Source: Candidatus Omnitrophota bacterium (GTDB lineage Bacteria > Omnitrophota > Gorgyraeia > Duberdicusellales > 4484-171). Taken from it: a stretch of 63,561 nucleotides of DNA. Positions 17,224 through 55,030 of this stretch are shown here, one piece after another (the stretch's first letter is position 1; each line of letters opens with the position of its first letter). The translations under genes and the position numbers were made by a program. The stretch spans positions 1 to 63,561 of the forward strand of contig JAIPHA010000005.1 of the NCBI GenBank assembly GCA_021735445.1, written 5' to 3'. The notes beneath the pieces are model-generated. The model searched no databases. It was not told where the DNA came from and saw only the letters and a program-made list of their open reading frames with translations.

Positions 17224-17352
17224 TAATCAACGAATGTACAAAGGTAATCTTCGAATTCACTAATCTGTACGAATATACGAATAGTATTATAAATATTCGT
17301 ACATTCGTAATTGATTCGTATATTCGTTGATAGTTATCTGTATTCGTTGATA
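17224..17352. repeat. ACGAAT palindromic element, family B copy 1
   Basis: ATCAACGAAT ... ATTCGTTGAT arms; 17252-17332 matches 54950-55030 at 77/81 nt. Confidence 0.88.
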
Positions 17353-17366
17353 ATTGTCAATTAATT

Positions 17367-18356
17367 ATGAATAAAAAAACAATACTGAGTGGGATGAGGC
17401 CAACCGGCAAGCTCCATCTTGGGCATTGGGTAGGAGCTTTGTCTAATTGGGTTAATTTGCAGAAAAAACACCATTGTTTTTTTATGGTTGCGGACTGGCA
17501 TGCTTTAATGAGCGAATACAGGAATCCGGAGCTGGTTAAGAATGCGACTTTTGATAATTTAGTAGATTGGCTTTCTTTTGGAATTGATCCGGAAAAATCA
17601 ACTATTTTCCGGCAATCTGAAGTGGCAGAGCATCTGGAATTATTTATGATTCTCTCGGTAATCACTCCTTTAGGGTGGCTTTGGCGCTGCCCCACTTTTA
17701 AAGAGCAAATTAAACAGCTAAAAGAAAAAAATATAAATACCTATGCTTTTTTAGGTTATCCTGCTTTACAAGCTTCAGATATAGCCTTGTATAAGGCTGA
17801 TTGCGTACCGGTAGGCAATGACCAGCTGCCCCATCTTGAACTTGCCAGAGAGATAGTCCGGAGATTCAATAGTTTTTATAAAAATAAAGTTTTAAAAGAA
17901 CCGAAGGCCCTATTGACCAAAGTGCCCAGGCTTGGCGGCCTAGACGGAAGGAAAATGAGTAAAAGTTATAATAATTATATAGCTTTAGACGAAGAAGACC
18001 AGTCTTTAAAAAAGAAGGTTTTAGGCATGTTTACCGATCCGGCTAGAAAAAGAAAAAGTGATCCCGGGAATCCGAAAAAATGCAATGTTTTTTCTTATTA
18101 CCAAATAATAAACCCAGAAAGAGAAGATGATATAAAACAGTGGTGCCACCATGCTCAGAAAGGTTGTGTTGAATGCAAAAAAATTTTACTGGAATCAATT
18201 AGAGCATTTATAGCTCCCAAAAGAGAAAAGAAGCGGGAAATACTCAAAGACAAAAAGAAAATATATGATATACTAAAAAGAGGAGAAGATAAAGCCAGGC
18301 AAGTGGCCTCTTTAACCTTAAAAGAGGTAAAAGAGGCAATGCAGTTAATCGCCTGA
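17367..18356 (+). CDS. trpS: Tryptophan-tRNA ligase
   Basis: 'SGMRPTGKLHLGH', 'YPALQASDI', 'VPVGNDQ' and KMSKS. Confidence 0.97.
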   Translation: MNKKTILSGMRPTGKLHLGHWVGALSNWVNLQKKHHCFFMVADWHALMSEYRNPELVKNATFDNLVDWLSFGIDPEKSTIFRQSEVAEHLELFMILSVITPLGWLWRCPTFKEQIKQLKEKNINTYAFLGYPALQASDIALYKADCVPVGNDQLPHLELAREIVRRFNSFYKNKVLKEPKALLTKVPRLGGLDGRKMSKSYNNYIALDEEDQSLKKKVLGMFTDPARKRKSDPGNPKKCNVFSYYQIINPEREDDIKQWCHHAQKGCVECKKILLESIRAFIAPKREKKREILKDKKKIYDILKRGEDKARQVASLTLKEVKEAMQLIA

Positions 18357-18392
18357 TCTTTTCGCTAAGGCAATATAATTTTGCGGTAAAAT

Positions 18393-19097
18393 ATGAAGCT
18401 AAAGTTAGATATATTTGAAGGCCCTCTCGATTTACTTCTTTATTTAATTAAAAAGAACCATTTAGAAATTTCGGATATCTCTATTACACAGGTAGTAGAC
18501 CAGTACTTACAGTTTCTTGAATTTATGAAACTGCTTGATTTAACTGTTGCTTCTGAATACTTGTTAATGGCTGCTACTTTAATCAGTATAAAATCAAAAA
18601 GTGTTTTGCCTAAAAAAGAAGAAGAGCCGGAGGAGGAAGAAGAAAACGCTGATCTTTTGGTTAAACGCTTGCTTGAATATGAAAAATTTAAAGAAGCTGC
18701 GGGGTTTTTGCGTAATAAAGAAAATCAAAGAAATAAATATTTTCCCCGCCCGACTTCCTCTTTGAAAGAATATAATGAACCTTATATTGAAGCCTCAATT
18801 TTTGATTTAATTAGCGCTTTTAAATCAGCTCTTAAAGAAGTTCCCAAAGATGTTTTTTTTGAGGTAATTAAAGAAGAATTTACGGTTGAAGACAAGATTC
18901 ATGATATTTTGCATATCGTTTTAGAAAAAAATAAGGTTTCTTTGGAAAAATTGTTTTCACAAAGCAAGAGCAAAATAGAAATAGTGGTCACTTTTTTGGC
19001 AATTTTAGAGTTAATTAAATTAAAAGAAATTGTTGCTGTCCAAGAGCAGCTTTTTAGCCCAATTTCGATTGCCAGGCCTCAACTAGTGAGTAGCTAA
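18393..19097 (+). CDS. scpA: Segregation/condensation protein A (kleisin)
   Basis: 'FEGPLDLLLYLI', 'ASEYLLMAATL..IKS' and 'VVTFLAILEL'. Confidence 0.95.
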   Translation: MKLKLDIFEGPLDLLLYLIKKNHLEISDISITQVVDQYLQFLEFMKLLDLTVASEYLLMAATLISIKSKSVLPKKEEEPEEEEENADLLVKRLLEYEKFKEAAGFLRNKENQRNKYFPRPTSSLKEYNEPYIEASIFDLISAFKSALKEVPKDVFFEVIKEEFTVEDKIHDILHIVLEKNKVSLEKLFSQSKSKIEIVVTFLAILELIKLKEIVAVQEQLFSPISIARPQLVSS

Positions 19098-19103
19098 TTA
19101 AAA

Positions 19104-52905: not shown

Positions 52906-53361
52906 ATGGAAAAAAAGATAGCTATTGTTTTAGGAAGCGAGTCAGATGAAGAAAAGCTAAAAGCGGGCTTTGACCTTTTAGATGAATTTAACATTTCTTA
53001 TCAGCTGAAGATAATTTCGGCGCACAGAAATCCGGATAAGTTGAGAAGATACTGTAAGAAAATAGAAAAAGAAGGGTATGGTCTGGTAATAGCTTGCGCG
53101 GGATTGGCAGCAGCTTTACCCGGCTTCATGGCTTCTTACCTAAATATACCGGTTATTGGGGTGGGGCTAAAAGGCGGTTTGGCCGATGGGCTTGATTCGC
53201 TTTTTTCCATAGTGAGCGCTCCCAAAGGGATTGGCTTGGTATCTTCCGGGATAGGCAAAAATGGTTTTATAAATGCTATTATTTTTGCTTTAGAAGTATT
53301 AGGCCTATCGTCTTCAGAAAGTTTAGCCCGGGCAGATAAAATAAAAAATAAATTTAAGTAA
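52906..53361 (+). CDS. purE: PurE (AIR carboxylase/N5-CAIR mutase), divergent
   Basis: 'VLGSESD', 'SAHRNP', 'AGLAAALPG' and 'PVIGV'. Confidence 0.88.
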   Translation: MEKKIAIVLGSESDEEKLKAGFDLLDEFNISYQLKIISAHRNPDKLRRYCKKIEKEGYGLVIACAGLAAALPGFMASYLNIPVIGVGLKGGLADGLDSLFSIVSAPKGIGLVSSGIGKNGFINAIIFALEVLGLSSSESLARADKIKNKFK

Positions 53362-53391
53362 CTTTAAACTTTAAATAATTAATTAAAAAAT

Positions 53392-54456
53392 ATGGAAAAA
53401 GTTGCGGTAAATGAAAACAATTTTAAACAATCTGATATAGAGAAAGCAGCTAATATGCTTTCCCAAGGTAAGATTGTGGCTATTCCCACAGAAACTGTCT
53501 ATGGTTTAGCTGCGAGGACTGATAAAAAAACAGCGGTAGCCAGGCTGTATTCTTTAAAAGGCAGGCCGCTGGATAAACCTTTCAGTATTGCTTTAGCTGA
53601 CAGCGGCCAGGCAATCAACCAATATTTTTTGACTCTTAATCCTTTTGGCTATAGATTAATCGAGAAATTTTGGCCGGGGCCTCTTACCCTTATTTATTAC
53701 CAGAAACCGGAGGGAAAAATAGGAGTAAGAATACCTGCCAATTTTGCTGCCAGGAATATTTTAAAACAACTAAAAACCGCTGTTTACCTTCCTTCAGCTA
53801 ATCTGAGCGGACAAAAAGAGGCTGTTTCTGCGGATGAAGTAGAAGATGCTTTCAATGGAAATATAGATTTAATTGTTGACGGCGGTCAACCCCGCTATAA
53901 AAAATCTTCGACTGTTATAGATTTGACCTACAAACCGTTTAAGATATTAAGAGAAGGAGTGGTTTCTGAGCGGCAAATAGCATCTATTTTTATCAGAAGA
54001 AGAATATTATTCGTTTGCACCGCCAATAGTTGCCGGTCTCCGGTAGCTGAATACCTTCTCCGCCGGTATCTGGAAAAAGAAAAAAGGGCTTTTCTCCAGA
54101 GATACGAAATTATTTCGGCAGGCATTGCCGCATCCGATAGAATGCACCCGCCCGAATACATCCAGAAAATCATGAAAAGCCAGGAGGGCCTGGATATAGC
54201 CGAATTTAAGGCTAATCAAGTGACAAAACAAATGGTGTTTTCTTCGGATTATATTTTTACCATGGAAGACTCTCAAAAAGAATATATTATAAAACAGGTT
54301 CCTTCAGCCCGGGCAAGAGTCTTTAACCTAAACAGGTTTCTCCCCTTCAACGATAGGGAGAAAATCCCGGATCCAATCGGTAAAGATTTTGCTTTTTTTG
54401 AAACTGTTTATGATAGGATAAAGAAAGCTATAGTTGAGTTGGTCGATTGGCTATAA
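53392..54456 (+). CDS. tsaC: TsaC/YrdC threonylcarbamoyl-AMP synthase fused to a low-molecular-weight protein phosphatase domain
   Basis: 'PTETVYGL', 'KGRP', 'FWPGPLT', 'SANLSG'; C-terminal 'FVCTANSCRSP' and 'IPDPIG'. Confidence 0.88.
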   Translation: MEKVAVNENNFKQSDIEKAANMLSQGKIVAIPTETVYGLAARTDKKTAVARLYSLKGRPLDKPFSIALADSGQAINQYFLTLNPFGYRLIEKFWPGPLTLIYYQKPEGKIGVRIPANFAARNILKQLKTAVYLPSANLSGQKEAVSADEVEDAFNGNIDLIVDGGQPRYKKSSTVIDLTYKPFKILREGVVSERQIASIFIRRRILFVCTANSCRSPVAEYLLRRYLEKEKRAFLQRYEIISAGIAASDRMHPPEYIQKIMKSQEGLDIAEFKANQVTKQMVFSSDYIFTMEDSQKEYIIKQVPSARARVFNLNRFLPFNDREKIPDPIGKDFAFFETVYDRIKKAIVELVDWL

Positions 54457-54484
54457 TAACAATTTTTAGCAAAAGGAGATTATT

Positions 54485-54925
54485 GTGCGCATAGCTTTTG
54501 GGTGTGATCATCGCGGCTTTAAACTGAAGAATGTTTTGATCAATTATTTAAAGGATAAAGGCCATAAGATTCTTGATTTTGGGACATTTTCTAAAGACTC
54601 TTGCGATTATCCGGATTATATCTATCCGGCTGCTTCTGCGGTGGCGAATAAAAAAGCCGATAAGGCCATAGTAATTTGTTTTACCGGTGTGGGAAGTTGT
54701 ATTTTGGCTAATAAAATTAAAGGAATCAGAGCGGCTTTAGTTTATAATATCAAGAGCGCTAAATTTTCCCGCCGTCATAATGACAGCAATGTTTTGGTGC
54801 TGGCTGCGGATTTATTTAAAGCCGATTACGCTAAAAAATTAGTTTTAGGCTGGCTTAAAGAGAGTTTTGAAGGAGGAAGGCACAGCCGGAGATTACGAAA
54901 AATAAAAAAAGTCGAGGAACTTTAA
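54485..54925 (+). CDS. rpiB: Ribose-5-phosphate isomerase B
   Basis: 'GCDHRG', 'DYPD', 'CFTGVG', 'ANKIKGIRAA', 'HNDSNVL' and 'GGRHSRR'. Confidence 0.95.
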   Translation: MRIAFGCDHRGFKLKNVLINYLKDKGHKILDFGTFSKDSCDYPDYIYPAASAVANKKADKAIVICFTGVGSCILANKIKGIRAALVYNIKSAKFSRRHNDSNVLVLAADLFKADYAKKLVLGWLKESFEGGRHSRRLRKIKKVEEL

Positions 54926-55030
54926 TAATCAACCAATGCATAGAATCATCGAATTTACTAATCTTTACGAATATACGAATGATATTATAAATATTCGTAC
55001 ATTCGTAATTGATTCGTATATTCGTTGATA
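54926..55030. repeat. ACGAAT palindromic element, family B copy 3
   Basis: Starts immediately after the rpiB stop; 77/81 identical to copy 1. Confidence 0.88.

Follow-up and report, generated by a model that had tools for sequence, protein, structure and literature searches.

The window, a stretch of 63,561 nucleotides (nt) on the forward strand of contig JAIPHA010000005.1 from a Candidatus Omnitrophota bacterium, carries three dispersed copies, each ~90-130 bp long, of an imperfect palindrome composed of the 7-nt word TACGAAT. They probably represent a non-autonomous form, devoid of genes, of a small mobile element of the cassette type, a judgement that applies to the joint reading including the mechanism proposed below. 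The genome to which the window belongs (G000) is a metagenome-assembled genome (MAG) of 1.17 Mb in 37 contigs, with 36.7% G+C. Its contigs are given as C numbers. The relatives used for comparison, among them the other species of the genus (G001 to G006), are incomplete MAGs.

Gene-bearing relatives and anatomy of the palindrome

On metagenome contig L245, the arms of the palindrome enclose the gene of a 132-amino acid (aa) protein scoring 107 bits against TIGR04256 and 105 bits against PF13366. Once this gene is removed, every box of the L245 arms can be aligned with its equivalent in the window copies. A second cassette (L331) lies in an rpsG/fusA spacer and its right arm is the consensus right arm. 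In L256, a 60-aa gene remnant is found between the arms and, by its sequence, this locus is a decay intermediate between cassette and gene-less palindrome. The armed genes encode GxxExxY nucleases of the PD-(D/E)XK type (125-136 aa; 99-120 bits to TIGR04256), in which the PD...E-x-K motif, as read from the proteins, is intact. By sequence, the cargo protein has no relative among PDB structures. In a genome of the same family (L178), a GxxExxY gene lies between CACGAAT arrays in the dnaX/recR spacer. The box layout of the window copies is that of the arms enclosing GxxExxY genes; having no gene between the arms and loops of ~12 nt, they represent the gene-less form. Because the same arms surround a GxxExxY gene and a decayed intermediate exists, the palindrome is likely to be a gene-less miniature of a GxxExxY nuclease cassette.

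Word-array cassettes of other sequence are present in G000 itself. The sole GxxExxY gene of this genome, which scores 134 bits against TIGR04256, lies on C36 between inverted ACACAGA arrays. On C15, a 119-aa four-helix-bundle gene (TIGR02436, 106 bits) is framed by inverted GTCACAnG arrays; this unit is a gene-bearing word-array cassette with another type of cargo. The ACACAGA word was also observed twice in the rpsG/fusA spacer on C7.

All three window copies were present where the original prediction had placed them (Table 1), each starting with TAATCAAC and copy 2 being inverted relative to copies 1 and 3. Segments 17252-17332 and 54950-55030 were identical at exactly 77 of 81 positions, as reported. 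Likewise, the TAA of copy 2 (22244-22246) is the stop codon of the trmD open reading frame (ORF) at 21551..22246, and TAATCAAC of copy 3 begins at 54926, immediately past the rpiB stop codon at 54923-54925. The gene names on both sides of the copies were supported by NCBIfam (IF-2/TrpS, TrmD/L19 and RpiB/SHMT).

The conserved unit in the three window copies is a core of 85-87 nt; copies 1 and 3 are a long variant with one additional outer box. In an alignment of 60 copies, taken from seven congeners and two other genera, the unit is an imperfect 85-nt palindrome with four TACGAAT words per arm, the consensus of which reads ATCAACGAATnTACGAATCAATTACGAATTTACGAAT, followed by an AT-rich loop of ~12 nt and ATTCGTATATTCGTAnAGATTnGTAAATTCGTTGAT. 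Each arm contains two TACGAAT word pairs, with word starts 8 nt apart within a pair and pair starts 19 nt apart, and the inverted arms are joined by a short, variable loop. Similarity between copies ends at ATCA...TGAT, and the most conserved part among the 60 copies is the entire internal core, not the termini alone. When up to two mismatches were allowed, the word pair TACGAATATACGAAT occurred 10 times in the window, always within the three copies, versus 0.15 occurrences expected.

A long imperfect hairpin is predicted from either strand (z = -4 to -7). Pairing arises because the arms are palindromic; a compensatory switch was found at none of the base pairs across the 60 copies, in which variation only breaks pairs, and an RNA or DNA structure under selection was rejected on this ground. 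A small ORF within the element was rejected as well, since no conserved ORF was found and stop codons close all frames in 25 of the 60 copies on one strand and in 52 of the 60 on the other. Rfam 15 covariance models gave zero matches in the window at gathering thresholds, and a permissive search of the three copies returned only a chance match to mir-297 (E = 0.82). Neither copy 1 nor copy 2 holds a terminator-like site; the stems of all three window copies are A+T-rich without a T tail, so that an intrinsic terminator, consisting of a G+C-rich stem and a T run, was discarded. TTGATA at the end of copy 1 is part of one 10/12 promoter-like match, and counts in this region equal the shuffle expectation.

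Target-site duplications were sought in the flanks of 57 copies and not found: at no fixed offset did direct repeats of 3-6 nt outnumber those between shuffled partner flanks, and the longest shared flank word averaged 4.68 nt versus 4.59 nt after shuffling. Longer terminal repeats were not found either. As a target word, TTAATTAA was rejected (13 window matches versus 11.3 expected); where it stands beside copies, it is part of a separate palindrome family of TTAATTGG words. Phage and plasmid records gave no match to the element. Two viral contigs did match, both by plain tandem ACGAAT arrays and not by the palindrome.

Table 1. Copies, remnants and empty site of the TACGAAT element, and other repeats, cassettes and tracts in the window and in G000. 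Positions without a contig number refer to the window.
Feature	Position	Orientation	Location	Remarks
Copy 1, long variant	17224..17352	canonical orientation minus, opposite to genes	infB/trpS spacer	inner 85-nt core 17247-17331; extra outer boxes 17224-17246 and 17333-17352
Copy 2	22244..22337	plus, canonical orientation same as genes	trmD/rplS spacer	core 22246-22332
Copy 3, long variant	54926..55030	canonical orientation minus, opposite to genes	rpiB/glyA spacer	core 54945-55029; outer box 54926-54944 degenerate
Half copy	C11:154-213
Degenerate, decaying copy	C12:22361-22490
One-box footprint	C1:8664-8673			ATTCGTTGAT
Empty site	19098..19103		between ScpA-like gene (18393..19097) and ruvB (19104..20099)	6-nt spacer
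GxxExxY gene in ACACAGA arrays	C36:586-927
ACACAGA word, twice	C7:29081-29127		rpsG/fusA spacer
TIGR02436 gene in GTCACAnG arrays	C15:~6240-6740			L355:190-690
540-nt tract	C15:3811-4350		277-aa flavoprotein-like gene
Second repeat family, hairpin GAGGGGACGTTTCCCTC	3249-3311, 3360-3395, 43038-43104, 43155-43189			two pairs of inverted copies; families D5, I4, I6, I7
AAGATAC palindrome	C9:5219-5309			L356

Distribution and occupancy of sites

A genome-wide search for further copies brought the number of full copies in G000 to six, in the spacers infB/trpS, trmD/rplS, rpiB/glyA, ROK-kinase/(fsa/tal), nusG/rplK and rpsL/rpsG, in addition to the remnants of Table 1. Three of the six downstream genes encode ribosomal proteins. 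The family is present in all six other species of the genus at about 4 to 30 copies each, an ~8-fold range. In the first survey of the relatives, at most 14 candidates per genome were scored, and the copy numbers from that survey are lower bounds. Word-pair counts within the genus range from 9 in G004 to 69 in G002. Contigs of the relatives break at copies, several of them ending inside one. Outside the genus the distribution is patchy, the family being present in four genomes of the same order (G044 and G047, with only traces in G040 and G043) and in two of another class (G105 and G112). Of 301 genomes sampled from the phylum, just 4 possess the exact arm, which is also present on more than 120 metagenome contigs.

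For 51 copies two flanks could be identified. All lie between protein-coding genes, 50 of them between co-directional genes, and the genes flanking copies are heterogeneous in function. The orientation of the element relative to the genes is 31:19, calls being unreliable for the diverged, near-palindromic copies L054 and L056. Start codons lie a median of 28 nt from the core, with a cluster at 23-35 nt. An insertion preference at stop codons, as proposed before, was borne out only weakly: the TAA of the element serves as upstream stop codon in 3 of 50 cases, and the core lies between -1 and 280 nt (median 19 nt) from the stop codon.

Occupancy differs between congeners at every site examined, and the three window sites are each empty in some congeners. 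Final comparisons of infB/trpS and trmD/rplS across congeners were read by eye. At infB/trpS, a copy is present in G000 and G006 (100% identical, both G006 contigs breaking inside), G004 has a 3-nt spacer (TAA-AAT-ATG), G001 carries an array of AGATAGAA words and G003 an array of TTAATTGG/CCAATTAA words instead. No Shine-Dalgarno sequence could be recognised upstream of the trpS ATG in G000 (window 17340-17369, caattaattATG). Because trpS of G004 starts 3 nt past the infB stop codon, translational coupling of infB and trpS is suggested, which would now be interrupted in G000 by a 164-nt insertion. At trmD/rplS, the copies of G000 and G003 are 82% identical, G004 is empty, and G006 and G001 hold only the one-box remnant GGTATTCG(T/C)TAAATAAT. 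The trmD gene at the empty G004 site is one codon longer (AAA-GGT-TAA), from which it follows that in G000 the final trmD codon was displaced by the insertion, and the element now provides the stop codon.

The rpiB/glyA site is filled in G000, G001 and G003, with a deleted variant in G003, and empty in three other congeners. At rpsL/rpsG, the TACGAAT element is present in G000, G001 and G003, and unrelated palindromes occupy the spacer in G002, G004 and G005. The palindrome of G002 is an AACCAGA-word array and those of G004 and G005 are 'cattgcgag...gcaatct' hairpins. The loci with unrelated palindromes in these two spacers are L191, L192, L194, L380 and L381. Seven sites filled in relatives are empty in G000. 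One of these lies in the window, between the ScpA-like gene and ruvB (both named by sequence recognition only); here, G005 and G001 carry copies that are 92% identical. The site of the C1 footprint holds full copies in G003 and G006 (99% identical to each other), and that of the decaying C12 copy is filled in G001 and G006 (97% alike). The element is gained at new sites and lost again by deletions that leave one terminal box, as in the footprints on C1 and at trmD/rplS of G006 and G001.

From these data, the palindrome behaves as a mobile element. The claim of a mobile unit inserting in either orientation was upheld by filled and empty sites among congeners, the range of copy numbers, the mixed orientation and the gene-bearing parents. 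Some copies were found to be fixed and orthologous in relatives and others were not. An assembly artefact was dismissed, as the copies are internal to long contigs and are found again at the same sites in genomes of other species that were assembled independently. A recent spread by duplication or gene conversion within G000, also put forward in the original prediction, was not supported: all six full copies of G000 are at sites occupied in another species, and they are probably old residents, not recent local duplications. The 94% similarity between window copies 1 and 3 is not that of a fresh duplication and reflects membership of a slowly changing subfamily, because each has an even closer match at the same site of another species (99% identity to G001 for copy 3 and 100% to G006 for copy 1). 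This subfamily is spread over four species (G000, G001, G003 and G006), at shared as well as unshared sites. For G002, all 14 copies examined are at unique sites and up to 95% alike, which indicates a lineage-specific burst.

Two further repeats were recorded. The members of the second repeat family of the window, a hairpin, lie ~40 kb apart as two pairs of inverted copies, and a gene-less palindrome of AAGATAC words, one copy of which is on C9, occurs at two loci in G000 (Table 1).

Identity between species and its possible causes

Between species, copies at the same site are 97-99% identical; identity is 74-86% for the flanking genes and 50-65% at third codon positions. In the rpiB/glyA comparison of G000 and G001, the 129-nt spacer 54926-55054 is identical at 126 of 129 positions, rpiB at 81% and glyA at 78%, with 57-61% at third codon positions. 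For rpsL/rpsG of the same two species, 114 of 119 positions are identical, and the flanking genes are 80-86% identical. At a further site ("site 10"), core identity between G003 and G006 reaches 99%, with flanking proteins at 72-84%. In every 3-kb locus compared, the element windows are the most conserved 80-120 nt, with edges sharp at the coding boundaries, and the core is more conserved than the remaining spacer. Control spacers at the same loci are scrambled. When 30 kb of the contig was aligned to G001 (76% identity), the only 80-nt windows with at least 95% identity were located at copy 3.

Among 17 freely varying columns, copies at different sites differ at 64%; four deep same-site pairs differ at 0-1 of the 17. 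Were these columns to vary with the freedom of third codon positions, each pair should show ~7 differences by our own estimate. A generic constraint on the hairpin or word array is therefore no explanation. This leaves either a constraint on all nucleotides that a resident copy has at its locus or, for the copies, a common ancestor younger than that of the flanking genes, and the identity islands point to lateral spread between species or to unusually strict selection. In a tree of rpoC, rpsL, rpsG and fusA, G002 is basal, followed by G000 and then (G004,(G001,G003,G005)); given this topology, the shared sites need several losses or several transfers.

Tracts of high identity larger than the element speak for lateral spread or replacement, as does the turnover of palindromes in the hot-spot spacers. 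At "site 9", ~0.5 kb around the element is highly identical between G001 and G006. The 540-nt stretch in a flavoprotein-like gene of C15 (Table 1), which is unrelated to the element, is at least 95% identical to G001, with 74% for the surrounding 34 kb; it looks like a recent inter-species recombination tract, from which it follows that recombination between the G000 and G001 lineages occurs. Protein identities between G000 and G006, which vary from 79 to 97% depending on the locus, point the same way.

In the proposed mechanism, the elements would be transcribed together with the operon around them, and the long imperfect hairpin formed by the transcript would make the insertion tolerable in tightly packed operons. 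The nuclease of the cassette would recognise the word arrays, and spread would take place by nuclease-triggered copying (homing or gene conversion) and not by cut-and-paste transposition. Part of this spread, or the replacement of resident copies, may occur between species of the genus. We tentatively propose a class of cassette in which a GxxExxY nuclease lies between inverted arrays of the 7-nt word that it recognises and which homes into operon spacers across species, a proposal that is possible but doubtful as a whole. Homing across species would explain the 97-99% identity of same-site copies, even at unconstrained positions, despite saturated synonymous divergence, as well as the different word palindromes in rpsL/rpsG and infB/trpS of sister species.

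Several observations weigh against the reading as a mobile nuclease cassette and its miniatures. Copies enclosing an ORF, which the original prediction had suggested to look for, were obtained from metagenome contigs without a taxonomic assignment. In the genus, no GxxExxY gene with TACGAAT arms was found, and the incomplete assemblies of G001, G002 and G003, which hold the most copies, lack GxxExxY genes altogether. None of the GxxExxY genes in the genus, G105 and G112 is adjoined by exact TACGAAT word pairs, and none of the half copies in C11, G005, G006, G040 and G043 encloses a gene. The mobilising protein is thus absent, unsampled or something else. Co-transcription and folding of the elements, like nuclease activity, DNA binding and transposition of family members, are predictions from sequence. 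At four sites, the identity islands stop exactly at the coding boundaries without a co-conversion tract, which selection explains no less well than homing. Identity is as low as 65-82% in other same-site pairs, which may represent independent insertions or replacements. With one G000 copy decaying, moreover, neither lateral spread nor constraint is uniform.

The alternative that survives best, although it is rather unlikely, is a host-selected cis element, in which each resident copy is now functional in its operon and kept by purifying selection, for instance as an RNase III processing or stabilising hairpin, a stop-start spacing device or a protein-binding array. Such selection does not conflict with a mobile origin, and lateral spread is its only rival as the cause of the identity islands. 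The sharp edges of these islands, the higher conservation of the core within its spacer and the clustered distance from core to start codon speak for it. So do the occupation of classical regulatory junctions (nusG/rplK, rpsL/rpsG and trmD/rplS) and the situation of trpS, which has no Shine-Dalgarno sequence and is coupled to infB over 3 nt in the empty G004 allele. However, the freely varying loop and spacer columns are also unchanged between species, the 60 copies contain no compensatory changes and both orientations occur. In addition, the same sites are empty or carry unrelated palindromes in sister species, and within G000 one copy is decaying and another has been deleted.

A classical miniature inverted-repeat transposable element (MITE) of a DDE transposon, or a repetitive extragenic palindrome (REP/REPIN) mobilised by a REP-associated tyrosine transposase (RAYT, Y1), is very improbable. 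The palindrome shares with these elements that it is short, non-coding, intergenic and multi-copy, and Y1_Tnp-like ORFs (PF01797; 180-460 aa) were found in all ten genomes tested (G000 to G006, G044, G105 and G112), 1 to 14 in each. Their numbers do not track copy numbers, however, with 4 genes and 69 word pairs in G002 and 14 genes and 9 pairs in G004, and the four G000 matches lie on C28, C10, C36 and C17, none of which carries a TACGAAT copy. As PF01797 number and position are independent of the TACGAAT copies, assignment to REP/REPIN with RAYT was rejected, and the Y1 ORFs may belong to another repeat family. Against either type stand the lack of a target-site duplication at any offset, conservation over the whole internal core and not just the termini, and the GxxExxY gene as only coding partner found between the arms, DDE families not having been searched systematically.

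Finally, an immobile operator array or structured RNA leader of a translation or central-metabolism regulon, fixed by descent, would fit the ribosomal-protein genes downstream of half the G000 copies, the location just upstream of start codons and the published interpretation of TAACTGA heptamer arrays (PMC4679880), but it is the least credible of the alternatives: the presence/absence pattern among congeners already contradicts it, flanking gene functions are heterogeneous, orientation is not fixed, Rfam matches and covariation are lacking, the same arms enclose a nuclease gene elsewhere, and other word palindromes lie in the same spacers of sister species.

Relation to known systems and significance

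Correia/NEMIS elements of Neisseria, enterobacterial ERIC/IRU and pneumococcal RUP are transcribed, hairpin-forming miniature elements, and Correia elements duplicate a TA target. Like these, the TACGAAT element is a non-coding imperfect palindrome of roughly 100-150 bp, located in operon spacers in either orientation and variable copy number, and is presumed to be co-transcribed as a long hairpin. It differs from Correia elements by the absence of a target duplication, and from all three groups in that its arms are arrays of a repeated 7-nt word instead of unique terminal repeats, the only coding partner found is a small PD-(D/E)XK gene instead of a transposase, and its same-site copies are near-identical across species. 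An integron attC site was rejected, as the flanks are housekeeping genes in conserved synteny (rpsL-rpsG-fusA, nusG-rplK). The copies are dispersed, three in 63 kb, and their ends (ATCAAC...GTTGAT) resemble R''/R' cores only loosely; no integrase search was made.

The intervening sequence (IVS) in the 23S rRNA of Coxiella burnetii, with its S23p ORF (PMC4990558), is comparable as a small selfish insertion, the ends of which pair into a stem and which carries one tiny gene or none. The same kind of cargo is present in G000, namely the four-helix-bundle TIGR02436 gene in word arrays. Unlike the IVS, TACGAAT copies are in spacers of protein genes and not in rRNA helices (51 of 51 with two flanks), and the cargo of their full-length relatives is GxxExxY and not S23p. 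Intergenic TAACTGA heptamer arrays in Beggiatoaceae, Cyanobacteria and Bacteroidetes were read as translational regulator sites (MacGregor 2015, PMC4679880). They resemble the TACGAAT element as arrays of a 7-nt word just upstream of starts, including those of ribosomal-protein operons, and by a patchy phylogeny that suggests horizontal transfer with no known mechanism (PMC4679880). Whereas TAACTGA arrays are mostly direct repeats without an inverted arm, TACGAAT arrays are inverted pairs linked to a nuclease cassette.

PDDEXK_3 is described as a family of unknown function that underwent multiple transfers (PMC3424549). A member of this GxxExxY family (TIGR04256, PF13366) stands between the arms of the full-length relatives; the window copies are gene-less. 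The literature searched held nothing on TACGAAT arrays and did not link the GxxExxY family to flanking word arrays or mobility, and a word-array-armed GxxExxY cassette is not described in it. The element gives a genomic context to GxxExxY/PDDEXK_3, a very large orphan family without a listed function, and connects this family with heptamer arrays and rRNA intervening sequences, for which a mechanism has been lacking. In ultra-small uncultured bacteria, such elements occupy operon spacers and interrupt assemblies, and there is a risk of taking them for operators or riboswitch-like leaders. As a signal that can be tested directly, the sharp identity islands speak for either a new kind of homing between species or unusually strict selection on an inserted hairpin. 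If the homing reading is true, the elements would act like gene drives, as alleles by which the intergenic spacers of streamlined genomes are overwritten again and again.

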